A stretch of DNA of 64,000 nucleotides. Origin: a candidate division FCPU426 bacterium (GTDB lineage: Bacteria > Oederibacteriota > Muellerivitia > Muellerivitales > Muellerivitaceae). Under the pieces are notes generated by a model that had not been told where the DNA came from, searched no databases, and saw only the letters and a program-made list of their open reading frames with translations. Shown here in pieces: positions 25,341-49,908 of this stretch. Position numbers and translations under genes: made by a program. The stretch covers positions 96,001 through 160,000 of the forward strand of contig CAVTWJ010000009.1 of the NCBI GenBank assembly GCA_963738405.1, given 5' to 3'. Every line of letters begins with the position of its first letter. Positions within the stretch are counted from its first letter, which is position 1.

Positions 25341-25410
25341 ACGCGGTAAGAAATGATTCAAACGCGATGCACCCTTAAAGGTGGAGTCGCGTAAAATTTT
25401 TTAAAATGAT

Positions 25411-25509: not shown

Positions 25510-25537
25510 ACCTTACGGCACAATGTTTTCGAATCAA
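25510..25537 (-). promoter_or_regulatory. Putative island-supplied promoter for the tRNA pair
   Basis: TTGATT-16 bp-TAAGGT, 12 nt before the tRNA 5' end. Confidence 0.45.
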
Positions 25538-29950: not shown

Positions 29951-30006
29951 ACCGCACCTGGCTTTCCGGAAAACTTCCGAGCAAAGCCTGGCGGGTATCC
30001 GCCAAG

Positions 30007-32670: not shown

Positions 32671-35382
32671 CTAATTTGCGATTAAATATTTTAGTGATAA
32701 ATGTTGGAATGTGGTTGCGGCGTCAATTCCGGTTTCAGGAATAAGCAAATATGACCAAGGCTTACCCCCGATAGTAGCTTCATATTCACTTGCTCTTTTG
32801 CACCACAAAACAGCGGCACGCGTCTTTTCTTCTACGTCTTTGTTTTTTATCTCATCATCATCTTTGACTTCACAAACGTATTTGGCTGAATTAGATTCAA
32901 CTATGAAATCCGGCCTATATTGGCTTTCGCCTATTAAATAAATACGAATATCGTGATCGTTAGGCCGGAACCACTTTAATACATCGTTGGGGCCTTCCAA
33001 TATAATTGCAAAACGGCGTTCTGGATCTGAATCGAATTTTTGGTATTGGAAAAGGCATTTTTTAAAACCCGAAAAGACCATAGAACGGATTCGAATCCGG
33101 TCCATAACTGGTATATGAAAATCGACAGGATTTTCTCCGACCGTTCTCGCCATTCCATGACTACTTCGAAAAATATCATGAGCATCATGAACTTCCGCCT
33201 CGAATTGGGTAACGATTTGCTTAAAATGATCCTGCATTTGACCGTGAATCAAATCGACGAGTGGAGATTGGTAATAGGCAAGAACATTCCTGATTTCTTT
33301 TTCATCTTTCAAATAGCTACGCAGATGAACCACCATCTGGCCAGCTAATTTGTAAAGCAGGGCCTGATCCTGATCGTAATTGATATCGTTCTTGTCTATT
33401 AGTCCTCTAACAAGGTGATCCTCAAGCCGCACTTCCGGATGGGTGCCTGTGCCACCAGAAAGGCGTTCTTGATCATTGGTGCGAAGATGCTGAATAAGAA
33501 TATTTTCTTCAACCGGTTGGTAATGAACAGCTGATGGGTCCAGGTCGAAATCTTGAAAACCACTCTCCTTCACATCCTTAGCCGTGATATTAATTTTTGG
33601 AACAACAATAAAACGGTCTAAAAATAATTCAGATACCTTTGCTGCGATCTGTGTAATATCCACCCTAGATTGGGTTACACCAACTAACTCTTCCTGAGTA
33701 GGTCCTAACTGACTTTGGACCCATTGGACAATTTTACTCTGTGTTTCTTTTTCTTTTAATTGGCTTAACCTGTGTAAAGGGACGATTTCCTGAATAGCGG
33801 TCAAAGCAAAATCTGCAACTTTTCGTTCCTCTTCCGTTGAAAAAAGAGCAGGGACTTCATCTGCACCTGGATGAATAATACTTGGATCAGGCCGCCAAAG
33901 CGCTGTCACGGCGTTAGGGGCATCTACCACTTCTTGGCGTTGAATGGAAATATCTTTTCCAATAATGACACCAGTTCGGATAATCGAATCTGGTTTATGG
34001 GCTTCATCGATTATTTCTTGGAATCGGTCATGTGAGACGATAGTCAAACGATCAACGGCCACCACCCCGGTTCGACGCCCATAGGGAAGTCGCAAACCTC
34101 GCCCAATGCTCTGCTCAACTAAAGTTTTAGAATTAGCTGCCCGGAGTGGAACAATCGTATACAAATTAGTGACATCCCAACCTTCTTTGAGCATGTTCAC
34201 ATGGATTACGATTTCAACAGGATTAGTTAAACTTTCAACCGTTAGTAATTTTGCAACGATATGATCTTTTTCTTCTTTACCACGACCCTCACCCGAGTGG
34301 ACTGTGATAATTTTACCTTTATAACTACCTTCAAAAAAAGAATCGCTTTCCATCAAGGTTTGCAAATTTCCAGCATGTTCAATATCGGTTGCTACTACCA
34401 GCATAAAGGGTTTTTTACGGTCCACGCCCTTGTCTCGGGCATAAAGATCCAATTTAACCTTTGTATCTTCATGGACACGGATTCCATCCTCAAGTTTTAA
34501 AAGTTCTAATTCTTCTGGGTTATAACTATCAGTACTAAAATTTTCTCTAGTAGCCACGGCAGGTTCTTTAACAAAACCGTCCTTCATAGCTTCCGATAGG
34601 GGATAACTATAAATAACATTTTTAAATGCAACCTGGGTTCCACCGGTTTCAATATGCGGAGTTGCGGTTAGTTCCAAACCCAAAATCGGATTAAGTTCAT
34701 TTATTGCTTTGAGACCAGCAGCGGCTCTATAACGATGACTTTCATCCATTAATAAAACTAAATCGGGCAAATTACTTAGGTATTCAAAATAGCTCTGTCC
34801 AATGTATTCGCTGAGTCTTTTAATTCGAGGGGCATTTCCTGCACGAACTTCACTTGTAATTTTGCTGATATTGAAAATGTTGATATGAGGTTCACCGCTA
34901 TCCCACATTCGCAATTGTGAACGAGCTTCGTTTCGTACTCCGCGTCCTTGTTCATAGTTATCGCCTGTAATAATTTCGGGAGTATTCGTTACGAAATCGG
35001 CTATTCCAGTAAAAACATATTTAGGGGTGCCTGGTGTGAAATCGGAAATTAGTTTGTTGTAAATTGTTAGGTTAGGAGCCAACACAAAAAAGTGCCGACT
35101 GCGATGGGTTCGGTACAAATAGGCAATAAAGGCACCCATAAGCCGAGTTTTACCCACTCCGGTTGCTAGGGCAAAACAAAGTGATGGGAATTCTCGTTCA
35201 AAATCCTGCACAGTTGAATAGTTAGCCTTAATGGTCTCTAGCGTTGAAATCGAATTTTGCTCTTTATGAAAAGCTACCTTTTCATCTAAGTCGGCTAAAA
35301 TTTCTAGCGAACGTCGCTGTGGTTCCCTAAGTGATAGGCGTTGTGTGATATAGCTGATTTGTTGTGAGTTTAGTGGGTACAT
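32671..35382 (-). CDS. res: Type III restriction enzyme Res subunit
   Basis: ATGVGKT, DESH, LKEGWD, QSIGRGLR, PDF...EVK nuclease. Confidence 0.9.
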   Translation of the reverse strand: MYPLNSQQISYITQRLSLREPQRRSLEILADLDEKVAFHKEQNSISTLETIKANYSTVQDFEREFPSLCFALATGVGKTRLMGAFIAYLYRTHRSRHFFVLAPNLTIYNKLISDFTPGTPKYVFTGIADFVTNTPEIITGDNYEQGRGVRNEARSQLRMWDSGEPHINIFNISKITSEVRAGNAPRIKRLSEYIGQSYFEYLSNLPDLVLLMDESHRYRAAAGLKAINELNPILGLELTATPHIETGGTQVAFKNVIYSYPLSEAMKDGFVKEPAVATRENFSTDSYNPEELELLKLEDGIRVHEDTKVKLDLYARDKGVDRKKPFMLVVATDIEHAGNLQTLMESDSFFEGSYKGKIITVHSGEGRGKEEKDHIVAKLLTVESLTNPVEIVIHVNMLKEGWDVTNLYTIVPLRAANSKTLVEQSIGRGLRLPYGRRTGVVAVDRLTIVSHDRFQEIIDEAHKPDSIIRTGVIIGKDISIQRQEVVDAPNAVTALWRPDPSIIHPGADEVPALFSTEEERKVADFALTAIQEIVPLHRLSQLKEKETQSKIVQWVQSQLGPTQEELVGVTQSRVDITQIAAKVSELFLDRFIVVPKINITAKDVKESGFQDFDLDPSAVHYQPVEENILIQHLRTNDQERLSGGTGTHPEVRLEDHLVRGLIDKNDINYDQDQALLYKLAGQMVVHLRSYLKDEKEIRNVLAYYQSPLVDLIHGQMQDHFKQIVTQFEAEVHDAHDIFRSSHGMARTVGENPVDFHIPVMDRIRIRSMVFSGFKKCLFQYQKFDSDPERRFAIILEGPNDVLKWFRPNDHDIRIYLIGESQYRPDFIVESNSAKYVCEVKDDDEIKNKDVEEKTRAAVLWCKRASEYEATIGGKPWSYLLIPETGIDAATTFQHLSLKYLIAN

Positions 35383-35385
35383 TCG

Positions 35386-37074
35386 TTATCTCTTCTTTGA
35401 ATTTTGGGATTTATTTTTCTCGTTAAACAAATCAGATTGCCCGGTTGTAACGGATTTGGAAATTTTGTGATTATTTATGTTTTCTTCGATTTCTTCATTC
35501 TCGTCCTCTACCACCGGCAACTGGCTTACTGCCATGCTATAGTCATCTTTATCCCATTCCGCTTTATCCAAAACAGCTTTTGGGATTTTCTTTAGCGACA
35601 AATTGCCCCATTGGGTTAGGTCTTTTGCTCTCCAAGCACCGCAACAAATCAATAAACTGCGTTTAGAACCCACCTCATCACTAATCTTGACCAATTGTTC
35701 AACTGTTAAAGTTTGTGTCGTCACGTATATAAAGTCATTTTCGGTGGACTGACCGTGTCGCCAAAATTCAGTTTCGCTTGGGGAATAAGTAAAGCCTTCT
35801 AATTTGCAAACGGCTTCGGCTACCAACTCGGGATTGAATGTTGGATTAATAACCTCATTCCCCCAAGAATCCTTTTTAATCAGCGAAGGGGCAAGTCTGT
35901 AATATCTAAATCCACCGCCACCTTTCCAACCAATAGATTCGCTAATACCACCTTGGTCAGTCCCATCAATAACTTTTTTAAGTCGAGGAATGATATGGGT
36001 ATGGCAATGTTCTCCCAGTTCTATCATTATCCAACGACGACCCATTTTGTGCGCTACTGCCCCAGTGGTGCCTGAACCAGCAAATGAATCGAGAACAAAA
36101 TCGCCAGGGTTAGTAGAAATTTGTAAAATTCTTTGAATTAAACGTTCTGGTTTCGGTGTAGCGAAAACAGGCGCTGTTGGTAACAAAGTTGCAATTTCTG
36201 CACTCGCTTCTCTTGTTGTACCTGCATCGTCACCTAACCATATGCTTTCGGGAACTCTTCCGTCTTGATCTTCCAAATATATCTTTCTCAAAATCCTTGA
36301 TTCGCCATCTACAAAAGTGATTTCTCCAGTAGAAACCTTTTCATAAAACGTTTCCTTAGACCAGCGCCAACCTTTATCTGGGGGCGCAATTTTATTCCCG
36401 TTTGGTGTTTCAATGACGTATTTTAAATTTTCCCTAAGATTAGGGCTCCGGACATCACCGCTTCTCCACAAGCCGCGCGGATCACTATCAGGGTTTGAAT
36501 AATTAATGTTATTTTCTTCAGTCCTGGGCAGTTTATTACGAATAAATTTATCTGACTTTTGATAAACCAAAATGTAGTTGTGATGTAATGAAAGTTGTTT
36601 CGCGTCGTTTTTGCCTTGAATACTGTGTTGCCAAGTAATAGAACCGAAAAAATTATCCCTGCCGAACATTTCGTCGCATAGGATTTTTAAATAGTGGCAT
36701 TCATTATCGTCGATAATTATCCAAATACTTCCGTCTGGGCTTAACAAGTTTCTCAGTAATTCCAACCGATCCCGCATTAAACTTAACCAAATGGAATGTT
36801 CTACGCCGTCTTTGTAATGTTCAAATGCACTACCTGTATTGTAAGGTGGGTCAATGCAAACACATTTTATTTTTCCAGCGAACTCGTTTTCCAATGCCTT
36901 TAATCCTAATAGGTTGTCTCCGAAAATTAGTCGATTATCAAATTGATCAACATCTCGTCGAGTTTTAGAGTGAAATGAATTTGCGAAGTCGTGGATAAGA
37001 ACCCGCGGTTCAAACTTCGGCCTGTTATCTTTGCCAATCCAAGTAAGTTCAAGTTTTGTTTTTTGCCCGTTCAT
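35386..37074 (-). CDS. mod: Type III N6-adenine methyltransferase Mod
   Basis: DPPYNTG, TPKPE, DSFAGSGTT. Confidence 0.92.
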   Translation of the reverse strand: MNGQKTKLELTWIGKDNRPKFEPRVLIHDFANSFHSKTRRDVDQFDNRLIFGDNLLGLKALENEFAGKIKCVCIDPPYNTGSAFEHYKDGVEHSIWLSLMRDRLELLRNLLSPDGSIWIIIDDNECHYLKILCDEMFGRDNFFGSITWQHSIQGKNDAKQLSLHHNYILVYQKSDKFIRNKLPRTEENNINYSNPDSDPRGLWRSGDVRSPNLRENLKYVIETPNGNKIAPPDKGWRWSKETFYEKVSTGEITFVDGESRILRKIYLEDQDGRVPESIWLGDDAGTTREASAEIATLLPTAPVFATPKPERLIQRILQISTNPGDFVLDSFAGSGTTGAVAHKMGRRWIMIELGEHCHTHIIPRLKKVIDGTDQGGISESIGWKGGGGFRYYRLAPSLIKKDSWGNEVINPTFNPELVAEAVCKLEGFTYSPSETEFWRHGQSTENDFIYVTTQTLTVEQLVKISDEVGSKRSLLICCGAWRAKDLTQWGNLSLKKIPKAVLDKAEWDKDDYSMAVSQLPVVEDENEEIEENINNHKISKSVTTGQSDLFNEKNKSQNSKKR

Positions 37075-37117: not shown

Positions 37118-40003
37118 TTATTGAATTGTCCACCGAACGGTGAATAATTCACTTGTCTTCATTTGTCTTCCCATTCTCTCCTGAAGTTCTTGAACTAAAG
37201 ATTGGTGCTTCTCGTCCAATTCATCCTGGGCGGCAAAGATCTGAACTCGTTTTCTCTTCAATTGAACTTGTAACTCCGCGATTTTTTGTTGAATCTCAAC
37301 TTTTTCAGCTAGACTCGGCACTCGTAGGCTTTGTCGGCGGGCTTCTTTGATTTCGCGTTCAATGGAAGTCAACTCGAAATCCAGGCCTTGTTTTTGATCT
37401 TCGTGCCAAAGCTCCAGCTTGTCTAATTCGGTTTCAAAGTAGTTACGATTTCTTTCCTCCATCTGACTTAACAAAATACCGCGTTGATTTTCAGTTTGAG
37501 TTATCAGAATATCTGGGCAAGAGAGATTACATTGAGTCGAACTTAGAACATTAAGTCCTAACAAACGGCGACATTGGTCAGTATCTAACGGTTGGCCATC
37601 TTCTGTGATGCCAGCCCAAATTAAGTATTCCTCAAGTTGCAATGTATGTACTGCAACTTTAGAAAGACTTAACCAGCCAGATTTACCTAGCAAAGTTTGA
37701 ATAGCGGCTATATTTAAACGGGAACCGGTTAAATCAAGGGTTATATCTGCTGAAGGTAATTTACGAAGTTCCCATTGGTCCAATAAACGCTGGGCAAGAG
37801 GATGACCGACTCTAAAAAGGTAAGTATCTTCGACATTACGCCCTGTTCGATAAGGCCCCTCGGGTATTTCCTCACCAACGAATGGATTTTCTTTAAGAAA
37901 AAAATATTTACCTTCTGGTCCTTCTTTAAACTCTGCAAAATCACGTAATGACCAAGCAGCTAAATCCCAAAGCCAACGACTATAACGATCACGGCCTGCA
38001 ATAGCTAAATCGTCACTAAGACGCAATTTTTCTTGAACTTCGACATCGAAATTCTCTAATAATTGTTGGCGTGTTTGATCCAAACGTTCTTGAATGGGAA
38101 TTTCTAATTCCGTTCGTAGTTGTTCAAAGCTTTTGTCGATCTGTTCAGGTGTTCGACAGTGTTGATAAATATCAGCGATTCTTTTTTCGAAGTCTACGCC
38201 GCTTTCTAATGTACTTAGTACTTGGTCACTCGCGCCAAAAACACCTTCGAAAAGCTTGAACTTTTCGTCTAAAAGCTCAAATACGCGTCTATCGACTTCA
38301 TTATCGAGATTTACAAAATTAACCACTACGACGTCATGCTTTTGGCCATAACGATGACAGCGGCCAATTCTTTGTTCTATGCGTTGGGGATTCCATGGCA
38401 GGTCGTAATTAACGACTAAGTTACAAAATTGGAGGTTGATACCTTCTGCGGCTGCCTCTGTCGCAATCATAATCTGGCCATCTTCTCGGAAATAATCGAC
38501 TAAAGCTTGGCGTGTATCCGCTGTTTTTGAGCCACTGATACGAGAAGTGTTAGCATGTTTGGAAAGCCAAGCTTGATACAAAGCTTTTGCTTGGGGGCCG
38601 TTGTTACTGCCGTTGAAAAGTAATATTTTCCCATGCCATTGGCTTTTTTCGAGTAAACCCAATAGGTATTCTTGGGTTCTGGTAGATTCGGTAAAGATAA
38701 CTGCCTTTTCTGGTGCTCCCAACTCTCTTGCTTTATCAAAACCCTTCGCTAAAGCGGTCAATAAAGCTTCGCCTTTAGAATTACTGTTTATGCTTTCCGC
38801 AAGGGCCTGGAATTCACGTAATCGAGCTATTTCTAGGCGCATTTTTCGTTTTTCTTCTTCTGTGTAGACACGAACTGGTTTTGCTTCGCCGTCTTCTGTT
38901 TCCTGTTCCTCATCATCATCCACCCATTCATCTGGTTGGGCTTCACCGCCTTCATAACCTGGCGTGACCGCTTCGATGTCAAGTTCGGGTGGTGCTGGGG
39001 CAGAAGCTTGTTCTTCAAGTTTTTCCGCCAAATGGTGAAGTGTGCCGGAAATAGCAAAACTCGAGCTTGCTAATAGTTTTCGAACAATCATGGTCATCAG
39101 GGCTCGCTGACTTTTTGGCAAAGCAAAGAGCGTATCTTCTTGCAAGTAATCGGATATTAAATCATATAGTTCTTGTTCCTCTGGTTTAGGATGAAACCCT
39201 TCAGTTATAGACAAGCGGTTCGTATAACGAACGTATTCCAAAACCTGGCGTCTAAGTGTTCGTTGGCAAAGAGGTTTAAGTCTTTCCTTTAAAAGACGAA
39301 AAGAAGAGCCTTGAGTTAAGTTGGAAAATTGGGCTTTAAAAGCTTCTAAAGATCCAAACGCATGGTCGTCAACCAAGCTCACCAGCCCATAAAGTTCTAA
39401 TAGGGAATTTTGTAGTGGCGTAGCAGTTAGAAGGATTTTTGGGTGTTGTGCCAATGCTTCTTTGATTATGTTGGCGATTTTCGCAGTGGGTTTATATACA
39501 TTTCGCAAACGATGGGCTTCGTCAATTACTACCAAATCCCAAGAAGTCCCTTTTACGTAGGACGCTTTAGCTTTTGCGAAATGTAGGGAAGTAATAACCA
39601 CTCGATCTGTTTGGTCAAACGGATTAAAGCGCCCCTTTTCAGTTTCGATATTAAAAGTGGCTTTTTCTAATATAAGAGACTTTAAAAAAAACTTTTGTTC
39701 AAGTTCTTCCGCCCATTGTTTTCGAAGGCTAGCGGGGCAAATAACAAGGAGTCTTCGTTTGCGTTCAGCCCATTTTTGTGAAAGAAGGATGCCTGCTTCA
39801 ATGGTTTTTCCTAAACCCACTTCATCAGCGAGGATAGCCCCGCGAGAAAAAGGTGAACGGAAAGCAAAAAGAGCGGCTTCTACTTGATGGGGATTTAAAT
39901 CGACCTGGGCTTCGGACAAGGTTGCGGCTAATTTATCCATGCTGTCGCTAGGACATTTACGTGTAAGTTCGCTGGCAAGGTATTTAGCGTAGTAGTCGTT
40001 CAT
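37118..40003 (-). CDS. SNF2-family helicase (RapA/DrmD-like)
   Basis: ADEVGLGKT, DEAH, TATP, EGINLQ, QRIGR. Confidence 0.92.
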   Translation of the reverse strand: MNDYYAKYLASELTRKCPSDSMDKLAATLSEAQVDLNPHQVEAALFAFRSPFSRGAILADEVGLGKTIEAGILLSQKWAERKRRLLVICPASLRKQWAEELEQKFFLKSLILEKATFNIETEKGRFNPFDQTDRVVITSLHFAKAKASYVKGTSWDLVVIDEAHRLRNVYKPTAKIANIIKEALAQHPKILLTATPLQNSLLELYGLVSLVDDHAFGSLEAFKAQFSNLTQGSSFRLLKERLKPLCQRTLRRQVLEYVRYTNRLSITEGFHPKPEEQELYDLISDYLQEDTLFALPKSQRALMTMIVRKLLASSSFAISGTLHHLAEKLEEQASAPAPPELDIEAVTPGYEGGEAQPDEWVDDDEEQETEDGEAKPVRVYTEEEKRKMRLEIARLREFQALAESINSNSKGEALLTALAKGFDKARELGAPEKAVIFTESTRTQEYLLGLLEKSQWHGKILLFNGSNNGPQAKALYQAWLSKHANTSRISGSKTADTRQALVDYFREDGQIMIATEAAAEGINLQFCNLVVNYDLPWNPQRIEQRIGRCHRYGQKHDVVVVNFVNLDNEVDRRVFELLDEKFKLFEGVFGASDQVLSTLESGVDFEKRIADIYQHCRTPEQIDKSFEQLRTELEIPIQERLDQTRQQLLENFDVEVQEKLRLSDDLAIAGRDRYSRWLWDLAAWSLRDFAEFKEGPEGKYFFLKENPFVGEEIPEGPYRTGRNVEDTYLFRVGHPLAQRLLDQWELRKLPSADITLDLTGSRLNIAAIQTLLGKSGWLSLSKVAVHTLQLEEYLIWAGITEDGQPLDTDQCRRLLGLNVLSSTQCNLSCPDILITQTENQRGILLSQMEERNRNYFETELDKLELWHEDQKQGLDFELTSIEREIKEARRQSLRVPSLAEKVEIQQKIAELQVQLKRKRVQIFAAQDELDEKHQSLVQELQERMGRQMKTSELFTVRWTIQ

Positions 40004-40218
40004 ACACCCTGAATTCCGGAAAAGTGTGTAAAAGTGTCCAAAAAGGCATCAGCGAGCTTAAAAATTCATCTAATTCTAACCTTTCCAAACTAATCGGTCA
40101 CATCCCATTTATTGCTTTAGGAATTGTTAAAAGAGTTGTTAGGGGGAGGGTTTGGGAGGGAAAGGCCCAAAGAATCACAAAAAGTCCCGCTAGGGACTTT
40201 TCGGAAATTCCCGAAGAG

Positions 40219-40701
40219 TTATGCGAGAAGTCCGGCTTGGCGGAAGGAAAAGTGGCCTTCGTGAGTTACAATCAGGTGGTCATGAACCGTTAGCCCCATG
40301 GCCCTTGCAGCGGTGACGATTTGGCGGGTTAATTGCCTATCTCCTTCGGAAGCTTCAAGGCTTCCCCCTGGGTGGTTGTGAGAAAGAAGCAACCCTGAGG
40401 CGTTAAGCTCTAAAGCTTTCTTCAAGACTTCCCTGGGATAGACGGCGGTATGGTCAACGGTTCCATCTCCCATGAGTACGCAATCCAAAACATGGTTTCT
40501 GTGGTCAACGTACATGACTAAAAAGGACTCGTTGGCCTTCCCGCCTATGAAATTCCGGAAATATTCCGCCGCATCCGCAGGACCCGAAAGACATGGCCCC
40601 CTTTTGTAATCTGCCCTGGCTTCAGCCCAGCTCACCGGGGGAACCGTAGGGGGAACCTTGAACATTACGTCTAATTTCATCTCCAACTGTTTCTTTCTCA
40701 T
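40219..40701 (-). CDS. radC: RadC-like JAB-domain protein
   Basis: E.F, VYPREV, HNHPGG...S..D, DHLI. Confidence 0.9.
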   Translation of the reverse strand: MRKKQLEMKLDVMFKVPPTVPPVSWAEARADYKRGPCLSGPADAAEYFRNFIGGKANESFLVMYVDHRNHVLDCVLMGDGTVDHTAVYPREVLKKALELNASGLLLSHNHPGGSLEASEGDRQLTRQIVTAARAMGLTVHDHLIVTHEGHFSFRQAGLLA

Positions 40702-41088
40702 GTGCCCTGCTCCTTAGTTTGTTAGAGGAGAGAGCACCCTCCGGGTGCGCCCCCTCACAAACGCTTGGGGGCGCAAACGGAGCGATAAGAGGAGTTCGCT
40801 TATGGAAAACCGAATCCGGGGGGAAGTGCGTTGTTCGCTTTTAGCATTATTGGGGGAAACGTCAGGCCATCTGTGCGGACGGAATTACCGAGGAACGAGG
40901 TCCGGCCGGCCTGGCGTTTAGGCGCTGTCCGACCCCAACGGCGAAGCCGCCCCCGGTTCGGTTTTCGACAGGATTTACGTTGCTGGGGGTTCCGGGGTGA
41001 TATTCCAACCGGACTAGGGATGGGAATAGGGAAGGGTCGTTTTCCTTTCCTTGGGGGGCCGGGGGAAACGCCACCCGGACAATTGAAG

Positions 41089-41124
41089 TTGACGATAGAA
41101 ATCTAAAGAATACTTTTGTATAAT
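41089..41124 (+). promoter_or_regulatory. Promoter of the micropeptide operon
   Basis: TTGACG-16 bp-TACTTT, and TATAAT (41119-41124) 6 nt before ATG 41131. Confidence 0.6.
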
Positions 41125-41130
41125 CGTCGT

Positions 41131-41220
41131 ATGAATCATTTTAAAATGAATTTAAATATGGGCCCAAATCCACCTTCTCCTCCACCAGATGATGATGGTA
41201 TAGGAACTAGAGGTAAGTAA
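41131..41220 (+). CDS. Micropeptide A, MNHFKMNLNMGPNPPSPPPDDDGIGTRGK (29 aa)
   Basis: Manual translation; PxPPxDDDG motif; stop abuts the next ATG. Confidence 0.65.
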   Translation: MNHFKMNLNMGPNPPSPPPDDDGIGTRGK

Positions 41221-41361
41221 ATGAATAATATTGATGACCCGAAAATTCCAGAGGCGGAAAATAATGATGAACGTTCTGAAACCGTATCAAAATCGGAAGT
41301 GTCTGTTCCAGATCCGCCGGTAGATGAAGATGGAACAATTTGGAATTCCAAAGATGAATGA
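41221..41361 (+). CDS. Micropeptide B, MNNIDDPKIPEAENNDERSETVSKSEVSVPDPPVDEDGTIWNSKDE (46 aa)
   Basis: GAGGT RBS, TAA-ATG coupling, PDPPVDEDG. Confidence 0.7.
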   Translation: MNNIDDPKIPEAENNDERSETVSKSEVSVPDPPVDEDGTIWNSKDE

Positions 41362-41455
41362 TTTCCAAGAAGATCCTAAACCAGAACCAATTCCAGCGCC
41401 TGTTCCCGAACCGCCAGAGGATGAGGATGGAACTATGCAGGAATCCGAGAGATGA
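41354..41455 (+). CDS. Micropeptide C, MNDFQEDPKPEPIPAPVPEPPEDEDGTMQESER (33 aa)
   Basis: ATGAATGA overlap with B, PEPPEDEDG. Confidence 0.7.
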   Translation: MNDFQEDPKPEPIPAPVPEPPEDEDGTMQESER

Positions 41456-41592
41456 GTTTATTTGAACGGGACCCTAATTTAATTCTCCCGCCTGAACCAC
41501 CGCCTGATGATGATGGGATTCTAGGCGCAAGCCCTATTCAACTTCCAGATCCACCTCCAGATGAAGACGGATATTTCGAAAAGAGCTTATAA
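41452..41592 (+). CDS. Micropeptide D, MSLFERDPNLILPPEPPPDDDGILGASPIQLPDPPPDEDGYFEKSL (46 aa)
   Basis: ATGA overlap with C, AGGA RBS, two motif copies. Confidence 0.7.
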   Translation: MSLFERDPNLILPPEPPPDDDGILGASPIQLPDPPPDEDGYFEKSL

Positions 41593-42111
41593 CAAGCTGA
41601 AAATTAAACTAATCGTCAAAGATATAATTAGCCCTACCAAACTTGAATACGCTGATAAATTTATTAACATCAGTTTAGCATCGTTACTTTGAATGCTTTG
41701 TTTGATTCTATCCTGGTGATAAAAAGTTATATAACCCAACATGACTTTCAGGGAATTTTCGTTACCTTCTAGTGTTGTTTTTTCTAACCACATACTCGGA
41801 TTGCTTCCTAAGGACCCATATTTATAGCTATGTAAAGAGACAACAATGAGAATCAAACTTAAAACAAAAAATGGTATTAACGATACTAGAAAATAAAACA
41901 AGTTCGGATGAGTGGTTTTAACAACGAATGAGGCGGAAATTTCACCAATTAAAAGAGTCAAGTAACCGTTGAATAAAATAAAGGCTTTCTGCTCTATTTG
42001 TTTTTTTGTTTCGATAACATCGGTTAGTTTTTTTTCCGCCTGATTTAAAGCTTCTCTAACAATACTCATGTTTATATGTTTTAAGTTTTTGATAGCTTCT
42101 TTGGTTAACAC
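41587..42111 (-). CDS. 3-TM membrane protein, loosely resembling Pycsar-type TM effectors
   Basis: GGAGG RBS and GTG start; helix-KA-TM-TM...N..K-TM layout. Confidence 0.7.
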   Translation of the reverse strand: MLTKEAIKNLKHINMSIVREALNQAEKKLTDVIETKKQIEQKAFILFNGYLTLLIGEISASFVVKTTHPNLFYFLVSLIPFFVLSLILIVVSLHSYKYGSLGSNPSMWLEKTTLEGNENSLKVMLGYITFYHQDRIKQSIQSNDAKLMLINLSAYSSLVGLIISLTISLIFSLL

Positions 42112-42175
42112 GACCTCCCCCTGAACAAGGTCACTAAATGTTTAGGGTTATGAAGTTTGGTAGAGTTCAACTTGC

Positions 42176-42820
42176 TCATTTATCAGCACCATGGGCAAGT
42201 TTTTTTAACGCGACTGATAGATCAATTACTTTGTTGTTCACTTTTTTTAAATCGCCAATCAAATGATGAAAATCTTTATATTGGCGTTGAATGATTTGTG
42301 GTGATAGTCCTGGCGATTTGGATCTTTTGTGTTCAAACCAGACTCTGAATTTTGCTTGCCATTCAGTTAGATGTGGTCGTAAGGTGTCATTCAAAAGGGA
42401 AATTAATACTTTTAGTAGTTTTTTTGCATCACCATCATCCGAAAGTTCTTCCACTGGGATAGTAACAATTAGCTCTCTGATTTTTTTAAATAGCTCATAC
42501 CAGGAATTGTAAACTTCAACTATCAAATCATGTTTTTCATCAAATGGTAATGCGGCCTTTCTTGTAACAATTTCTGCCCAAGCTACATGAGCAATTCTGG
42601 AAACTTCCGAGGTTCGTTTAAGTTTAATTTTTGAAGTCCCCAAAGGAACTTCAATCTCTTCAATTTTCCAATGCGAATTACGGTTTAAAAAAAAGTATTT
42701 AATAATCCACATAAGGAAAATTGTTCCCGTGATTAGAAATATCAACGAATTATTTAAATGAAATTTGAATCCATCACTCAGTGTGTAGGAAATGTAAACC
42801 AAATCATCATTAGTATTCAT
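42176..42820 (-). CDS. Hypothetical protein with N-terminal TM helix
   Basis: LIFLITGTIFLMWIIKYFF; ATGA overlap with the Nmad2 gene. Confidence 0.75.
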   Translation of the reverse strand: MNTNDDLVYISYTLSDGFKFHLNNSLIFLITGTIFLMWIIKYFFLNRNSHWKIEEIEVPLGTSKIKLKRTSEVSRIAHVAWAEIVTRKAALPFDEKHDLIVEVYNSWYELFKKIRELIVTIPVEELSDDGDAKKLLKVLISLLNDTLRPHLTEWQAKFRVWFEHKRSKSPGLSPQIIQRQYKDFHHLIGDLKKVNNKVIDLSVALKKLAHGADK

Positions 42821-43461
42821 TTTATTTCCGAAATGGGAAAAACTTTAGCATTTTTGAACTCTAATGGCATTCCTTTAAAGCCCCATCCGTAACTCACGTC
42901 TATCCATTTGATTATACTCTCTAAGAGTTTTGATGAAGGTTTTCGGTGACCCCTGGCTGAACAACAAATATCTTCTTTTGAAGGACCAAACATTCTAAAA
43001 CGTTTCAAGATTTTAGGGGCGTTCTCGCCGAAATAGACGAATTTATTTGAAACTAAAACACGATTAACGTTAGTGTCGTGCGTAATGTTTTTTCTGTTCG
43101 GTTTCCCTTTCTCTTTACTATGGTGCGAATCTACTTGATGCCATCGATCATTTCTAAAAAAATAAATGTTATCACCATACAGTTGTTTTAAACTCCCATT
43201 TAATTTAGGTCTTTTTGAAAAAAATCTAGGATCACGCCAGTAAGTATTGAAATCAAAAGCTTCTGTGACTTGCATTAAATAAATAATCTTCCCTGCGAAC
43301 CCATACCTGGATTTTGCGCCTGTTCCAATAATCCAATCTCCAATTTGAGCACGTGCTCTTATTTGTGGTTTGCAGGTCGCAAGCGTACACCATCCATAAA
43401 AAGGATTAGGAGCAAATCCATAATCACGGGCAACAATGTAAGAAAAAATATTTAAGGGCAT
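42817..43461 (-). CDS. Nmad2-family (nucleotide modification associated domain 2) protein
   Basis: SYIVARDYGFAPNPFYGWCTLATCKPQIR...GDWIIG...GDNIY. Confidence 0.85.
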   Translation of the reverse strand: MPLNIFSYIVARDYGFAPNPFYGWCTLATCKPQIRARAQIGDWIIGTGAKSRYGFAGKIIYLMQVTEAFDFNTYWRDPRFFSKRPKLNGSLKQLYGDNIYFFRNDRWHQVDSHHSKEKGKPNRKNITHDTNVNRVLVSNKFVYFGENAPKILKRFRMFGPSKEDICCSARGHRKPSSKLLESIIKWIDVSYGWGFKGMPLEFKNAKVFPISEIK

Positions 43462-43937
43462 GTGTATCTCTTGATTTGCCATTCAGGATTTCTGTCATTC
43501 CCAGATGCTGGATCTTCCCACTTTTGAGAATTTGTGGAATTTAAAGCATCAACAATCTGTTGACTTTGCCAACCAACAATTGCTGAATCGCCTAACTTTT
43601 GTAGCATATCCGGAATATTTGCTTCAGTTGCACCCTGAGCATAAACACCAATAACTCGTTTACCTTGAGAGATGGCATATTCAATTTCCCAATTAACCCA
43701 CCAGCTAGTATGTGTGTCCTTATCAATTAGAACAACTAGAGCACTAGCCCAATCAATTCTTGGGGCTAATATATTAGTTTTGATGTATTCAGGGTCTTTT
43801 GCTTCGTTAGGTTTTTCGCTATTAATAGAACCATCTCGAACATCCATGCCAGCTTGGCCAATTAAATCTTTAAGCTTAGGTAAAAGCTCGTCATTTTCGT
43901 GTATGTGAGAGATAAATATATTTTTGATATCGGACAT
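43452..43937 (-). CDS. TIR domain protein, DUF1863/ThsB-like
   Basis: IFISH, LVVLI..TH.S.WVNWEIEYA...KRVIGV with catalytic Glu. Confidence 0.88.
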   Translation of the reverse strand: MSDIKNIFISHIHENDELLPKLKDLIGQAGMDVRDGSINSEKPNEAKDPEYIKTNILAPRIDWASALVVLIDKDTHTSWWVNWEIEYAISQGKRVIGVYAQGATEANIPDMLQKLGDSAIVGWQSQQIVDALNSTNSQKWEDPASGNDRNPEWQIKRYTCP

Positions 43938-44048
43938 ATTTATTAATTCCGAAATAAAAAGTTATTTGAGATCCGTTTATATATTATGCATTTGTATTAA
44001 TTAATTAGCCACGAACTAAATATTAAAATGTAACAAATAATTAGAGAT

Positions 44049-45056
44049 TCAATGAGTTTTTATTACTTTGTTTGTGCGTTTCAACCAATGGAAAAAAAGG
44101 TTTTTAAATACTCCATTTGTACATTTTAAAATTGTTTTATTTGATAATTCTTGCCAACCTCGCCGTCTTGCCGCCTCAGCTGACAAAATGAATAAAATAT
44201 TTTTGTAAGCGATTGGTGCATTTGGCCAGTAGGTAATAGCCTCGTGTTTTCGCTTAGAAAGTTTCTCGCTAATAAATAGATCAATTTTTCTGCCTAACGC
44301 GAAAAATAAATATTCGGATTGTTTTTTATTAACGGAAATGTTATCTGAATTTCTAGGCGGCTTCCCTTTTTTACAAAAAACTTTATCGGCGAGGTACAAG
44401 TGGAGGCTATCGCTGATTTGATTGTAAGAACCTACTTTAAGTTTTAACCAGCCTGCCAATATTTCTTGAAGATAAGTAAATTGTATAAAATCATAAGGAA
44501 GACCGCGAAAAAGATCATTGCTCCTTAATACTTGCAACCATTCGAGTTTACCGTCTCTAACCTTTAATAAAGAAACAATATTACAAGGAACATCTTCATT
44601 TCTTGGAAGCCCTTTTACTTTAGGAAGGTCTAAATTGGAGTCCCAAATTTCTAAAACAACCTGTCGACTTATTGAATTAGATTTTAATGTTTGATAGGCG
44701 TTCTCGAGTTGATCTAGACCATTTCTTTTTCGGAGTCGAAAACCATATGCTCCGTATAAAGTTTTACCTGAGCCTGCAAAACTAGAAAGTTCTCGGTTCC
44801 AATAAGTTAAAAATTTAGAATCATTTCGGCCATTCATTGTCCAGATGACTTCGGCTAAAGCAAAAGCGATATTCAAAGTGGGTTTTCGAGAAAAAATCCA
44901 TCTTTGACGTGGATCTTCAATTACAAAGCCTGAATGAAGTATTTCCTTTGTTGGGCCAATTCTACTTGGGTGTCTTTGATATTTTTTATTATCATTGAAT
45001 TCGTTAAAGGCTTTTCGCCAAACAATATCAGCGGATTTCCCTTGGAATATTTTCAT
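44049..45056 (-). CDS. Thymidylate synthase-family (hydroxy)methyltransferase
   Basis: GAYGFR, SRQ, VPCN, RSND...GLPYD, SLHLY. Confidence 0.85.
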   Translation of the reverse strand: MKIFQGKSADIVWRKAFNEFNDNKKYQRHPSRIGPTKEILHSGFVIEDPRQRWIFSRKPTLNIAFALAEVIWTMNGRNDSKFLTYWNRELSSFAGSGKTLYGAYGFRLRKRNGLDQLENAYQTLKSNSISRQVVLEIWDSNLDLPKVKGLPRNEDVPCNIVSLLKVRDGKLEWLQVLRSNDLFRGLPYDFIQFTYLQEILAGWLKLKVGSYNQISDSLHLYLADKVFCKKGKPPRNSDNISVNKKQSEYLFFALGRKIDLFISEKLSKRKHEAITYWPNAPIAYKNILFILSAEAARRRGWQELSNKTILKCTNGVFKNLFFHWLKRTNKVIKTH

Positions 45057-45059
45057 TTA

Positions 45060-46055
45060 TCAAGCACCCTTTAATCCTTTTGAAATTAGATGATTGATTT
45101 TCCATTTAGGTGGATACCAAAAATGGATATTTTCTTTATTCATTTGATAGATCTGTTTAATTCTTTTACGGCCACTAAGTCCTTGGACTTCTGGATGTGC
45201 AACCCGAGAGTATTTATCAACTTCGCAAAATAAATTCTGACAATCAATATTCTTTAAAGGTCTACCCCATAGGGATTTAAAATTGATGTTAAGTCGCTCG
45301 AATTCTTCGTTTTGCACGTCAGTCACATAACGAATGATATCTGACTCGTTGTAATCATTTAAATCTTCAAAGCACTTACGGATACCATCAAGTGCACCTG
45401 GTCCAGGAACGACAAAATCATTTTCATCAAAATTAGTAATACAACTATAGTTAATATCAATCGTGAATTGATAAGCCAAAAAGTTACCAATGGTCGGGTA
45501 ACTTAATAAAATGGAAAATACTTCCTGCATTGATTTTGAGCGAGAAATATTATCAACGACACGCTCCTTCATTAAAAGTTCAATTAGTTTAAGATGATTT
45601 TTGTGTTTCTTAGAATAACCGAAATAACTTTTTCCTGAAGCCATGATATAAGCCCCGGAATATATTTTTTGATCTTCCTTTAGTGCCTTGGACAAAATCT
45701 TTTCATACATTTCGTATTTATAAGATGAAAAGCGAGGTTGTCCCAATTCCTTACAAAACAATTCCCAAGTACTGATTTTGTTAAATAATTTAAAAAGAAT
45801 AATCCTAAAAAAGATTTCTTTTGCATCAACCGGGCCTGAATAAATAACATTTTTAATTAAGTACTGACTAACTCTGTCAGAAGCACGATAGGCGTTAGTG
45901 AATTTATGTTTGGCGATAATTGGGTCGGAGGTCCATGGACTAGGTTCGTTATAAACTTTTTTAAAAAAAATCGACTGTCTTTCAGCCGCAAAAATCCAAT
46001 AAGTGTCAAATACCTTTGTGGGTTTAGGACGACTCTTAGTAGAAAAAGTAATCAT
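45060..46055 (-). CDS. 5-hmdU DNA kinase-like helical domain (aGPT-Pplase1 clade)
   Basis: YWIFAAERQ...PWT.DPI...KFTNAYRASDRVSQYLI, PGPGA, QNLFCE.DKY.R. Confidence 0.82.
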   Translation of the reverse strand: MITFSTKSRPKPTKVFDTYWIFAAERQSIFFKKVYNEPSPWTSDPIIAKHKFTNAYRASDRVSQYLIKNVIYSGPVDAKEIFFRIILFKLFNKISTWELFCKELGQPRFSSYKYEMYEKILSKALKEDQKIYSGAYIMASGKSYFGYSKKHKNHLKLIELLMKERVVDNISRSKSMQEVFSILLSYPTIGNFLAYQFTIDINYSCITNFDENDFVVPGPGALDGIRKCFEDLNDYNESDIIRYVTDVQNEEFERLNINFKSLWGRPLKNIDCQNLFCEVDKYSRVAHPEVQGLSGRKRIKQIYQMNKENIHFWYPPKWKINHLISKGLKGA

Positions 46056-46079
46056 TGTTTATGACCTGGAATTTGATGT

Positions 46080-46814
46080 TTACTTGGATGAATTAGTTAT
46101 TTGTTTAGTGAATGGAGTAGCTATCGGTAATGTTATAGAAGGCGTATTAGGCCGAGAAGATTTAGAACTTGTGATCGAATTAACTAATATTTCTGCTAAA
46201 ACTGTAACTGCAAAAACCAGCACGCCGAACCAGAAAAACTTTTTGATAAAATCGATCGTTTCTTCAACTTTAATCAATCGTTTATTTAATGCGGCAGGTG
46301 AAGCAACTTCACCTGCCATTCTCATTACATCTTCACTAGATATTTCCATCTGATCATATTTTTTGCCATCGTATAAATCATTTGTCTTTTGATCTAGCTT
46401 GGAAAACCAGATCAAAAATATTAACTCGCCACGCGTAAGAACAATATCTCCGCTTCCAGCGTTATAGACAGAAAATTTCAGTCTCCCCCTAAATCCTGGA
46501 TCAACGTGAAATCCAGAAACATTAACTAGGCCACGAAACTTTTTGTCGGCTTTGATTGAAATAAAGCCGATCATATCGGCTGGGATGGTTACGATCTCTT
46601 CTGTGAGAAGAAGAGCGAATTGGCCTGGGGGGATAGCAGTTTGCTTACCAATCTCGAGAAATTTCTTAACCTTATCCCCGGAAATATAGACTTCAGGTCC
46701 TAGGGTTAACTCGTATGCACCGCGTTTTATGTTTTTCGAATCAGAGCTACTAATTAGTTTCGGGAGGATTTTTTTAAGACTTTCAGAGCTTAAAAAGGAC
46801 ACTTTGGCTCCCAA
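46080..46814 (-). CDS. dCTP-deaminase/dUTPase-fold protein with C-terminal TM helix
   Basis: AYELTLG, FALLLTEE, HVDPGFRG; TM FFWFGVLVFAVTVLAEILV. Confidence 0.8.
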   Translation of the reverse strand: MGAKVSFLSSESLKKILPKLISSSDSKNIKRGAYELTLGPEVYISGDKVKKFLEIGKQTAIPPGQFALLLTEEIVTIPADMIGFISIKADKKFRGLVNVSGFHVDPGFRGRLKFSVYNAGSGDIVLTRGELIFLIWFSKLDQKTNDLYDGKKYDQMEISSEDVMRMAGEVASPAALNKRLIKVEETIDFIKKFFWFGVLVFAVTVLAEILVNSITSSKSSRPNTPSITLPIATPFTKQITNSSK

Positions 46815-46896: not shown

Positions 46897-47244
46897 TTAT
46901 TGAACCCACAACAGATCTCGATTTCTAATATTATCGAATCCCGTGAAGCTTCCAAATACACCATATTCTCTTTTGCCTCTGGCTTTATGAGCGTAAGAAA
47001 GCCATTTAATCTTTTCTCCAACCTTCAGGGCATAATCAAATCCAATTCGATAAAAGCCGGGTTCCATTCCGCGTGCTAAGTCTGTCCTTATCTCAATATT
47101 TCTGTCGTATCGCATTGAGCATGCAGGGTCGTTGTAATAAATGAAAATGCAATCCATACCATCCATGATTTCGTAATTATGAAAATATTCGTGAGGAAAC
47201 AACATTGGATCAATGGTGGGTAGTGAGGTATTAAAAAAGCCCAT
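46897..47244 (-). CDS. Hypothetical protein, paralog of 47265..47651
   Basis: Shared D.IF.YY.D, GM.PGFY...FDYA, E.G.F. Confidence 0.7.
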   Translation of the reverse strand: MGFFNTSLPTIDPMLFPHEYFHNYEIMDGMDCIFIYYNDPACSMRYDRNIEIRTDLARGMEPGFYRIGFDYALKVGEKIKWLSYAHKARGKREYGVFGSFTGFDNIRNRDLLWVQ

Positions 47245-47264: not shown

Positions 47265-47651
47265 TTACGCGGACCAGATAATAAGGTGTTTTGGTATTTC
47301 TCTGGGGGCCCTGACCCAAGGATGATTCACTCCCGAAAAAATCCCAAACTCCATTTTATTGTGATCGTGGTAAGCATGCAAAAGCGAATTAGGATCACCA
47401 TTTGATTCAACGGCGTAATCGAAATATGGCAGGTAGAATCCAGGTAACATGCCTAAGCTTAAATTCACTTTGACCTCGATTCTTCGCTTATAGGAAATCT
47501 GACCGAGTGAATCAAAGTCATTACCTTTTCTCGCATAGTCCCGGTAATAAACAAAAATAGTGTCTTCTCCTAAGGGATTTTGGAAACGATTGAAATATCC
47601 AACCGGATTTCCTTTTGGGTGTAACACTAATGAAGTTAGGTTGATTGCCAT
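47265..47651 (-). CDS. Hypothetical protein, paralog of 46897..47244
   Basis: Same motifs as the neighbour; GGGG RBS before ATG 47651. Confidence 0.7.
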   Translation of the reverse strand: MAINLTSLVLHPKGNPVGYFNRFQNPLGEDTIFVYYRDYARKGNDFDSLGQISYKRRIEVKVNLSLGMLPGFYLPYFDYAVESNGDPNSLLHAYHDHNKMEFGIFSGVNHPWVRAPREIPKHLIIWSA

Positions 47652-47747
47652 TTTTCCCCCCTGGGAACATTCACGAATGAATTTTAAGTTAGCAGGGCAA
47701 AATATACAGCCAAATTTAGTCCAAAGAGTTTGGGACATTGGACCAGG

Positions 47748-48924: not shown

Positions 48925-49908
48925 TTATTTTTCCAATTCGCGTTTAATCTCAGATAGGGAAAGCCGCTTACCTTGCCATTCCCGAATAAGTTTAACCTTT
49001 TCGACAGCCTCTAACGGATACAAGGTGTAACCCGATTCGGTATGGTCCGCCGGTTTCAAGAGCCCTTCTTTGGTCCAATGGCGAATAGTTGCGGTGCTTT
49101 CACGGGTCTTTCGGGCCAGGGCCCCGATCCGAAGCAGGGAAGTAGTATCCTGGGCTTCCTGAGCAGGGCTTTCCCCTTTTGCGGCTTTCAAGTAAATATC
49201 AAGTGACCGATCGATAATCCTGTACATGAGCGCTTCATAGTCTTCGATGCTCCCCCCCAACTGTGCTTTTTCTAACCCGTTTAAATAAGCCAAACGCTCA
49301 CGGGTACGGATGAAGGCCGGGGGATAACCTTTTTGCATTAAAAGCAGGTTCATCAAAAGCCGGGCTGTTCTGCCGTTACCATCGACAAATGGATGGATAC
49401 TCACCAGACGGTAATGCGCTTGAGCCGCCAACTCGGCAGGGTGTAGGTCGGTGGTCGATTTGAGCCAGGATGCGAATTGACTCATGAGTTGGGGAACTTT
49501 TTGGGCATTAGGAAGCACGACCGTGGAACCGGAAATTCTGACCATTAGGGTCCGGTACCTTCCGGCATTGGAATCGTCGATACCCTTAAGAATCATCCCA
49601 TGAAGTTCCAGGATCTCTTTTTCGCCTACAGGGTGCCTTGGACTGGAAACAACCTCTTTTAACCAATCCAAAGCCTTGGCATGGTTGGTGGCTTCCAAGT
49701 GTTCCCGCATCGTCCGGCCACCAACGGTAATCCCTTTTTCCAGGACAATAGCCGTTTCCTGGCGGGTGAGGGTATTGCCCTCAATCGCGTTGCTCGTATA
49801 AGTCAGCTCAACCCGGAACCATTCTTCCAGGTTCAGGATTAATGCGGGTTTAAGCGGACGTAAGGCGTCCAGGCGCTTCTTTTTTGTGTCGAGTTTGTTC
49901 CAGTTCAT
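48925..49908 (-). CDS. Fic-family AMPylase with C-terminal MerR-type HTH
   Basis: SNAIEGN inhibitory motif, HPFVDGNGRTAR, IGALAR...TIRHW..GLL...SGY. Confidence 0.9.
   Translation of the reverse strand: MNWNKLDTKKKRLDALRPLKPALILNLEEWFRVELTYTSNAIEGNTLTRQETAIVLEKGITVGGRTMREHLEATNHAKALDWLKEVVSSPRHPVGEKEILELHGMILKGIDDSNAGRYRTLMVRISGSTVVLPNAQKVPQLMSQFASWLKSTTDLHPAELAAQAHYRLVSIHPFVDGNGRTARLLMNLLLMQKGYPPAFIRTRERLAYLNGLEKAQLGGSIEDYEALMYRIIDRSLDIYLKAAKGESPAQEAQDTTSLLRIGALARKTRESTATIRHWTKEGLLKPADHTESGYTLYPLEAVEKVKLIREWQGKRLSLSEIKRELEK

Follow-up and report, generated by a model that had tools for sequence, protein, structure and literature searches.

A cluster of seven consecutive genes in a 64,000-nucleotide stretch of DNA from a candidate division FCPU426 bacterium (contig CAVTWJ010000009.1; the whole stretch is termed the window) is a real, conserved defence locus. 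It encodes a Dcd-fold protein with a C-terminal transmembrane (TM) helix, a PF18723 protein (HMUDK_hel), a thymidylate synthase (TS) family enzyme, a ThsB-like TIR protein, Nmad2 and two membrane proteins, termed TM1 and TM2. There is good support for placing the locus in the DS-4 family, as a membrane-anchored variant that lies within a defence island borne by an integrative element. DS-4 (working id NTTI) is an E. coli system counted among the validated systems of the DefensePredictor paper (Science 2026, PMC13092281), the available part of which presents the 5-hydroxymethyluracil kinase and TS domains as newly validated in defence. The window shares four of the five DS-4 components when these are compared by domain family. 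By analogy, the locus is very probably an anti-phage system built round pyrimidine-nucleotide chemistry. An earlier reading made from the letters of the DNA (the sequence-only reading) had proposed an anti-phage system with such chemistry, and the match of four of the seven genes to a validated system at domain level agrees with it. The same reading recognised no named system in this combination of genes; DS-4 is in fact a described relative, and the match to it is partial rather than full.

Conservation of the locus and exchange of its cassettes

Nmad2 was aligned with 28 database relatives and one genome per species was then scanned, which gave 562 stretches encoding a relative. The locus counts reported here refer to the best 80 of these 562 and describe the nearest relatives only; genes were counted by tblastn with window and locus proteins, within ~7 kb around Nmad2. 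A TIR gene is present in 78 of the 80 loci, immediately upstream of Nmad2 and on the same strand, with a 4-nt overlap in 28 of them; L041 and L058 are without it. The invariant core of the related loci is the TIR directly upstream of Nmad2. Accompanying this core are HMUDK_hel (50 loci), a MazG-MazG_C protein (46), a TIR_2 + SLOG cluster 2 protein (44), a second ThsB-like TIR (35), TS (15), a protein resembling uracil-DNA glycosylase (UDG; 12), a dNMP-kinase-like protein (11), TM1 (7), a radical SAM protein (5), UDG (4) and a Dcd-fold protein (3), with TM2 in none. The TS, MazG-MazG_C and radical SAM genes are mutually exclusive across the 80 loci, 14 of which carry none of the three, and HMUDK_hel is found in 15/15 TS loci. 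The five-gene set of DS-4, i.e. TS, dNMP kinase, HMUDK_hel, TIR and Nmad2, occurs together in 11/80. The loci nearest to the window, L061 and L064, encode the Dcd-fold protein with its TM helix (Dcd-TM), a dNMP kinase, TS, HMUDK_hel, TM1, TIR and Nmad2, in other orders. A tblastn search of the window detected no dNMP kinase (L061 protein as query), MazG, SLOG, UDG, radical SAM or second TIR, and profile searches of the seven proteins gave no match to any kinase family.

The related loci come from many phyla. The cluster is more than a chance assembly, as the gene associations recur in unrelated genomes; the conserved co-occurrence to which the sequence-only reading had tied its proposal is present across phyla. 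The Nmad2 system is cellular and not viral, with Nmad2 found in 0/50,697 phage records; it was found in 17 plasmid records. Taken together, the window locus and its 80 relatives provide an anatomy for the DS-4 family, in which mutually exclusive nucleotide-modifying cassettes are attached to a TIR-Nmad2 core.

Two observations on the relatives stand apart from the window locus. In L003, L006, L015, L024 and L043 a radical SAM/SPASM protein stands in place of a TS or MazG cassette and lies downstream of Nmad2, at ~600-1700 bases, or, in L043, upstream of it; a UDG-family protein is present in four of these five loci, and the L006 copy matches the PADLOC prokaryotic viperin model (E 1.2e-19). 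In 44/80 loci a protein of ~690 aa with TIR_2 and SLOG cluster 2 (PF18163) domains lies beside the TIR-Nmad2 pair (e.g. L022, 6435-8522) and is a candidate ThsA-like sensor-effector of those loci; the window is without it.

The TIR-Nmad2 core

Domain calls for the seven proteins were made by Pfam, PADLOC and NCBIfam profile searches, and those of the sequence-only reading for the TIR and Nmad2 proved sound. The TIR matches PF08937 (ThsB_TIR; E 2.4e-21) and, over its full length, the PADLOC ThsB1 profile PDLC00418 (E 6.2e-54); across 34 sequences Glu84 is invariant, as are Arg157 and Cys160 in the C-terminal tail. Nmad2 matches PF18753 (E 2.1e-68). Its AlphaFold2 model has a moderate predicted local distance difference test score (pLDDT 76), and the Foldseek matches of the model are weak and uniform, i.e. 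ASCH, YTH, EVE and McrB-N structures in the PDB (best E 0.023) and ASCH, DUF3850 and EVE in BFVD (best E 0.0063). All of these folds belong to readers of modified bases, and the model suggests a PUA-like/ASCH-like fold and a role for Nmad2 as such a reader. Profile and sequence searches of the PDB gave no usable relative of Nmad2. Among 36 longer proteins, Nmad2 was found fused to Nmad3 (22), MazG_C (4), TIR (2), SLOG cluster 2 (1) and Macro (1).

The TIR and Nmad2 are predicted to bind each other, and probably form the core of the system as a heterodimer. Complex prediction gave interface scores (ipSAE) of 0.85, 0.85 and 0.83, against 0.00 for the best control; the mark set for this score was reached by 116/157 solved complexes and 2/215 mismatched pairs, counts that are only rough with the alignments used here. 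The prediction runs share at least 95% of their contacts, with a partner pLDDT of at least 88. In the predicted interface the TIR tail (residues 148-160) packs against Nmad2 at residues 86-95 and at 112-117, where an invariant Ser-His-His-Ser occupies 112-115; the TIR tail is likewise invariant.

The pyrimidine enzymes

The TS-like protein matches PF00303 (E 2.2e-19) and reaches none of the NCBIfam cut-offs for thymidylate synthase. Among solved structures it is closest to the CMP 5-hydroxymethylase MilA (5b6d/5jnh; E 5e-28, versus ~1e-10 for canonical TS). Read against Glu68, Lys133, Cys155, Ala176, Asp186, His216 and Tyr218 of MilA (PMC5175136), the corresponding residues of the window protein are E69, R131, C158, S179, D189, H219 and Y221. 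The catalytic set is kept, i.e. the nucleophile Cys158 with Glu69, His219 and Tyr221. Arg131 and Ser179 are of the deoxyribose type, whereas Lys133 and Ala176 of MilA are of the ribose type, and Asp189 is of the cytosine type, matching Asp186 of MilA. From these residues we predict that the gene encodes a MilA-like pyrimidine C5 (hydroxy)methylase. The sequence-only reading had called the enzyme a dCMP-type TS, rightly in view of Asp189, which is exceptional in the family: the uracil-type Asn stands at position 189 in 11/11 TS-like relatives, and Asp in the window copy only. Asp189 is a candidate for a natural Asn-to-Asp switch, which predicts a change of substrate from uracil to cytosine.

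HMUDK_hel matches PF18723 over the whole model (E 2.5e-110). The sequence-only reading took this protein for an hmdU-kinase-like enzyme, and this label is here corrected: the AlphaFold2 model (pLDDT 91.7) consists of helices throughout and the protein has no Walker A motif, and the P-loop kinase reading was rejected on both counts. Foldseek with the model gave no match at E <= 0.001, the weak matches including helix-hairpin-helix (HhH) DNA glycosylases and the PaMx11 gp46 glycinyltransferase, and profile and sequence searches of the PDB gave no usable relative. A tblastn search detected homologues in 494 phage records, among them ViI-like, M6-like and SP-10 phages, and one of these carries the annotation 'aGPT-Pplase clade 1'; the homologue of phages LuckyBarnes and Montesquieu adjoins a TS/hydroxymethylase gene. 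Cys277-Glu278 and other residues are invariant across 23 sequences. According to the available part of Lee et al. 2021 (PMC8989533), aGPT-Pplases of clade 2 act as amino acid:DNA transferases, for which a Cys, with a Glu next to it, is essential. In a check for clade 2 membership PF18723 alone matched at E <= 0.1, and the invariant Cys-Glu pair resembles the clade 2 active site. We assign HMUDK_hel to the aGPT-Pplase clade 1 family, as an all-alpha protein that has a Cys-Glu pair and is not a P-loop kinase.

The Dcd-like protein matches PF22769 in Pfam (E 3.9e-12), and its best solved relatives are 9ln0 and 8y1w, chains of 155-156 aa named 'dCTP deaminase' (E ~7e-14). Its true start is probably a GTG four codons downstream of the TTG. 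A hydrophobicity scan with a threshold, by which TM helices were predicted throughout, places a single helix at the C terminus (residues 189-207), and the Dcd-fold homologues of the related loci (L061, L064 and L043) all keep it. Ser115 aligns with a Glu of E. coli Dcd (1xs1; Ala in 1xs4 and Asp in 2v9x), and the same column holds Ser, Ser and Ala in the three Dcd-like relatives. We take that Glu (E138 of E. coli Dcd) to be the catalytic residue of the deaminase; as Ser115 replaces it, the protein is unlikely to deaminate. It may hydrolyse dCTP or dUTP, or only bind them. The Dcd call of the sequence-only reading holds for the fold and the C-terminal TM helix and fails at the catalytic Glu. 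As a candidate for dCTP-deaminase defence the gene was rejected, with no PADLOC match and the catalytic Glu replaced.

The membrane proteins TM1 and TM2

The sequence-only reading counted two membrane proteins as parts of the system. This is borne out for TM1, relatives of which stand beside TIR-Nmad2 in 20/80 loci by all-against-all clustering; tblastn detects them in fewer, as given above. TM1 belongs to no Pfam or PADLOC family and consists of an N-terminal TM anchor and a conserved helical domain, with twelve invariant residues that include T86, R87, N144, R148, P149 and W154. A TM helix is predicted in five copies only, i.e. those of the window, L001, L019, L061 and L064, and a close TM1 subfamily is present in 3/3 loci that carry the Dcd-TM protein. 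PDB searches with TM1 returned designed coiled coils only. An assignment to DUF6650 (score 0.77) was rejected in view of the missing Pfam support.

For TM2 the related loci give no such support. Because none of the 80 related loci carries TM2, its position is what argues for its membership in the system, which is uncertain. Two hydrophobic segments of the protein are above threshold, and a further hydrophobic stretch can be read from the sequence at about residues 44-64. Two close homologues were found in the word-indexed collection, and the family comprises 312 representatives at E <= 1e-3; no Pfam family was found for the window protein or 40 sampled relatives, and no PADLOC family for the window protein or 22. 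TM2 was tried as PycTM and rejected, the likeness being that of a language model to clusters partly annotated as PycTM (14% of members, score 0.96); PF18967 gave no match to TM2 at E <= 10 and matched 0/40 family representatives at E <= 0.01.

It is possible, with the balance leaning against it, that the seven genes are not one system and that a DS-4-like core of four or five genes (HMUDK_hel, TS, TIR and Nmad2, perhaps with Dcd-TM and TM1) lies beside an unrelated TM2. The lack of a TM2 relative in the 80 loci, the 64 nt that separate TM1 and TM2, and a TM2 family far larger than its two close homologues all argue for such a division. However, TM2 shares the strand and the low guanine-cytosine (GC) content of the cluster, and a terminator scan found no terminator-like site between TM1 and TM2.

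Proposed mechanism

We propose, at a chance that we place narrowly short of even, that the locus is a variant of the DS-4 family in which diversion of the deoxypyrimidine pool to a 5-substituted product starves or poisons the synthesis of phage DNA. The TIR/nucleoside deoxyribosyltransferase (NDT)-fold enzyme and Nmad2 would form the heterodimeric core, joined by a cassette that modifies pyrimidines. Upon infection, dCTP or dUTP would be bound by the Dcd/dUTPase-fold protein and probably hydrolysed to the monophosphate. The MilA-like TS enzyme would then add a one-carbon unit, most likely hydroxymethyl, at C5 of the deoxypyrimidine monophosphate, the predicted substrate being dCMP in the window copy and dUMP in the relatives. 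The aGPT-Pplase-1 enzyme, with its Cys-Glu pair, and TIR-Nmad2 would process the 5-substituted pyrimidine by exchange of the C5 group and by N-glycosidic cleavage or exchange, with Nmad2 as the putative reader of the modified base. The net effect would be the conversion of the deoxypyrimidine pool into a non-canonical product, so that phage DNA synthesis is starved or poisoned. The TM anchors of Dcd and TM1 would hold this machinery at the membrane, and TM2, if it is a member, may be an effector. We infer each chemical step, the trigger and the outcome from the observed gene content, linkage and active-site residues and from the predicted TIR-Nmad2 interface.

Known members of the TS, MazG and radical SAM cassette families act on free nucleotides, and TS, a T4-gp1-like kinase and a dUTPase-fold protein together form the phage route to modified dNTPs in T4 and SPO1; for these reasons we favour diversion of the deoxypyrimidine pool. 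Within this reading, depletion is favoured over incorporation because the window system contains no kinase to re-phosphorylate the product.

Several results weigh against pool diversion. In Pfam the TIR fits ThsB_TIR (2.4e-21) far better than Nuc_deoxyrib_tr (0.096), and some longer Nmad2 proteins carry a SLOG or a Macro domain; both results point to NAD/ADP-ribose chemistry over a nucleotide N-glycosidase. The window is without the dNMP kinase that is found in DS-4 and in 11/15 TS loci, and the fold matches of HMUDK_hel, like those of Nmad2, are all non-significant (none at E <= 0.001). The counts for related loci are limited to the nearest relatives. Moreover, the sole phenotype of DS-4 in Table S7 is a weak one, with phage lambda, a -log of the efficiency of plating (-log(EOP)) of 0.93 and smaller plaques (PMC13092281).

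The ThsB likeness of the TIR and the SLOG and Macro links make Thoeris-like signalling a serious rival, although on balance we consider it unlikely. Here the ThsB-like TIR, with Nmad2 holding or regulating it, would convert NAD+ to a signal on infection; this signal would gate TM1, TM2 and Dcd-TM and lead to cell death or arrest, and the pyrimidine enzymes would either tailor it or act as a second arm. The full-length ThsB1 match, the ThsB_TIR match and the invariant Glu84 of the TIR are all in keeping with such signalling. So are the TIR_2 + SLOG cluster 2 protein found by the pair in more than half of the related loci and the second ThsB-like TIR in 35/80, SLOG being the ligand-sensing domain of ThsA, and so are the fusions of Nmad2 with SLOG, Macro and TIR and the TM helices in 3/7 window proteins. 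However, the window cluster has no SIR2, SLOG or Macro domain, and the sequence-only reading was correct that no ThsA, cyclase or glycosyltransferase is present in it (profile searches and tblastn). The TM helix of TM1 is missing in 16/20 TM1 relatives, TM2 is absent from the related loci and matches no PycTM or SLATT hidden Markov model (HMM), and signalling of this kind gives no reason for the constant attachment of a TS, HMUDK_hel, MazG or radical SAM cassette.

A more far-reaching proposal, and an improbable one in our estimate, sees in the TIR-Nmad2 heterodimer the conserved engine that drives a large defence superfamily of at least 562 loci. Its swappable cassettes, i.e. TS together with either a kinase or a dUTPase-fold protein, MazG-MazG_C, and a viperin-like radical SAM protein with UDG, would each make a different modified pyrimidine, which the TIR would use (e.g. 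by base exchange onto ADP-ribose or deoxyribose-phosphate) to form a new immune signal or antimetabolite, read at the membrane in the present locus.

The TIR-Nmad2 core, the exclusive cassettes, the corrected kinase label and the Asn-to-Asp switch together name catalytic residues and metabolites to look for. If the favoured pool-diversion reading is true, bacteria would be turning phage-type base-modification chemistry against phages.

Gene layout and the defence island

The seven open reading frames (ORFs) run on the minus strand at 41587-46814 (Table 1). The sequence-only reading was right on their coordinates, their common orientation and their AT-richness, the GC content of the cluster being 0.33-0.38 versus 0.50-0.59 across most of the window. 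It was overstated in giving several of them overlapping start and stop codons: overlaps occur at two junctions, 10 nt at TIR/Nmad2 (or 31 nt if the longest Nmad2 ORF is taken) and 4 nt at Nmad2/TM1, whereas the other four show gaps of 24, 3, 111 and 64 nt. A promoter and terminator scan gave nothing decisive, and promoter-like sites were fewer than in shuffles.

Table 1. Genes of the cluster and neighbouring features, with positions in the window
Feature	Position	Strand	Length (aa)	Family or remark
Dcd-fold protein with C-terminal TM helix	46080-46814	minus	244	PF22769
HMUDK_hel protein	45060-46055	minus	331	PF18723
TS-family protein	44049-45056	minus	335	PF00303
ThsB-like TIR	43452-43937	minus	161	PF08937
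Nmad2	42817-43461	minus	214	PF18753; length from ATG at 43461; longest ORF starts at 43482
TM1	42176-42820	minus	214	no family; N-terminal TM helix
TM2	41587-42111	minus	174	no family; multi-TM
Tandem tRNA-Ser pair	25249-25497			start of the island
Tyrosine integrase	25534-26637
TraG/TraD-type coupling protein	28139-30028			type IV
Type III Mod/Res pair	32671-37074			restriction-modification
SNF2 helicase	37118-40003			PADLOC DrmD
Stretch between RadC and TM2	40702-41586			885 bases
Small ORF, nearer to cluster	46897-47244	minus	115	no Pfam or PADLOC family
Small ORF, farther from cluster	47265-47738	minus	157	no Pfam or PADLOC family
Fic domain + MerR helix-turn-helix (HTH) fusion	48925-49908			PADLOC PDC-S04 and SoFic

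The island begins at a tandem tRNA-Ser pair, with genes for a tyrosine integrase and a TraG/TraD-type coupling protein after it, and ends before rpoD; it appears to be carried by an integrative mobilisable or conjugative element at the tRNA-Ser pair. PADLOC matches among the neighbours of the cluster are AbiU (an AIPR protein; E 6.3e-44), a type III restriction endonuclease (1.5e-206) and methyltransferase (7.9e-208), a DrmD-like SNF2 protein (2.5e-204) and SoFic/PDC-S04 (~1e-29), and a RadC gene is also present. From the tRNA-Ser pair, the integrase, the coupling protein and these defence genes around the cluster it follows that the sequence-only reading placed the locus correctly inside a defence island.

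Some features of the island are recorded here in their own right. The SNF2 helicase adjoins the type III Mod/Res pair, with no other DISARM genes. The fusion of a Fic domain with a MerR HTH lies at the far edge of the island and matches both PADLOC models at ~1e-29. The two small ORFs directly upstream of the cluster are paralogues, 36% identical over ~100 residues, with no relative in the 80 loci. The stretch between RadC and TM2 holds six ORFs of 53-91 aa only, with a higher GC content of ~0.52 (40001-41000); Rfam over the whole window detected two tRNAs only, and nothing in this stretch.

The type III restriction-modification (R-M) genes and the DrmD-like helicase beside the cluster bear on a further alternative, namely hypermodification of self DNA, in which a 5-substituted pyrimidine would mark host or element DNA and shield it from the neighbouring restriction modules or from incoming nucleases. 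Phage genes for TS and aGPT-Pplase make DNA hypermodifications, according to the available part of PMC8989533, which accords with such marking, as does the location of 10-12/80 related loci within type I R-M operons. However, the cluster contains neither a P-loop 5-hmdU DNA kinase nor a glycosyltransferase, and no clear clade 2 transferase, and no nuclease is consistently linked to TIR-Nmad2 across the 80 loci. To replace a base fully, a dNMP kinase would also be required, and the normal dNTP would have to be excluded; the kinase is missing in the window. Embedding in R-M operons is moreover common for unrelated defence genes. We consider self-marking of DNA very improbable, and less likely than either diversion of the deoxypyrimidine pool or Thoeris-like signalling.

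Comparison with known systems

The likeness to Thoeris lies in the ThsB-type TIR of the window with its conserved Glu, and related loci often add a SLOG protein and a second ThsB-like TIR. As to ThsA (SIR2-SLOG or Macro-TM), profile searches of the seven proteins found none of its SIR2, SLOG or Macro domains, and no TIR-SLOG homologue was found in the window. The window TIR has an obligate partner in Nmad2; we know of no Thoeris type with such a partner.

Phage thymidine hypermodification in ViI, M6, SP10 and PaMx11 shows the same pairing of a TS hydroxymethylase with an aGPT-Pplase, according to the available parts of PMC8989533 and PMC5889632, in which no activity assigned to aGPT-Pplase clade 1 was found. 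The phage clusters are viral, whereas the window locus is cellular, with a clade 1 protein as its one recognised aGPT-Pplase and no clear clade 2 transferase. Unlike the phage pathways, it is also without a P-loop 5-hmdU DNA kinase and without tailoring enzymes that depend on pyridoxal phosphate (PLP), radical SAM or FAD.

A TS-family C5 hydroxymethylase is combined with an NDT-fold N-glycosidase, as may be the case in the window, in MilA/MilB of mildiomycin biosynthesis (PMC5175136) and BcmA/BcmB of bacimethrin biosynthesis (PMC4081090), as far as the available parts of these sources show. The window differs from MilA/MilB in a TS of the deoxy type (Arg131, Ser179), in a TIR much nearer to ThsB_TIR than to Nuc_deoxyrib_tr and in having no antibiotic-biosynthesis genes.

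Defensive dCTP deaminase likewise places a Dcd-fold protein in a defence context. The window protein differs from it in having no PADLOC match, Ser in place of Glu and a TM anchor, and in always standing within a multigene TIR-Nmad2 cluster.

The closest comparison is with DS-4 itself. A search of the literature, judged by titles and the beginnings of abstracts, found only the DefensePredictor paper to describe a defence system of such a kind, and a DNA search of complete E. coli genomes with the HMUDK_hel-to-Nmad2 stretch of the window gave no match. The available part of that paper also shows predicted, unvalidated systems with aGPT-Pplase, MazG, MazG-C, dUTPase, NMAD and UDG domains and credits Burroughs et al. 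2015 with earlier defence predictions for several such domains; no proposed mechanism for DS-4 was found in it (PMC13092281). According to Table S8, DS-4 comprises a TS (361 aa; DS-4A), a dNMP kinase (185 aa; DS-4B), a PF18723 protein (340 aa; DS-4C, WP_087900470.1), a TIR/NDT protein (163 aa; DS-4D) and Nmad2 (220 aa; DS-4E); the TIR/NDT protein matches DefenseFinder ThsB_Global, and its HHpred row lists 4JEM, i.e. MilB, a CMP/hydroxymethyl-CMP hydrolase (PMC13092281). At domain level DS-4 and the window have in common the TS, PF18723, the ThsB-like TIR/NDT and Nmad2, with the TIR directly before Nmad2. The two differ in gene order and in the dNMP kinase (DS-4B), which the window is without. 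At the position of base specificity the TS of the window has Asp, whereas that of DS-4 apparently has Asn, as read by eye from the printed sequence. To the DS-4 set the window adds the Dcd-TM protein, a TM-anchored helical protein and a multi-TM protein. New in the window are the Dcd-fold protein that ends in a TM helix, without an accompanying dNMP kinase, the TM-anchored helical protein and the rare multi-TM protein.

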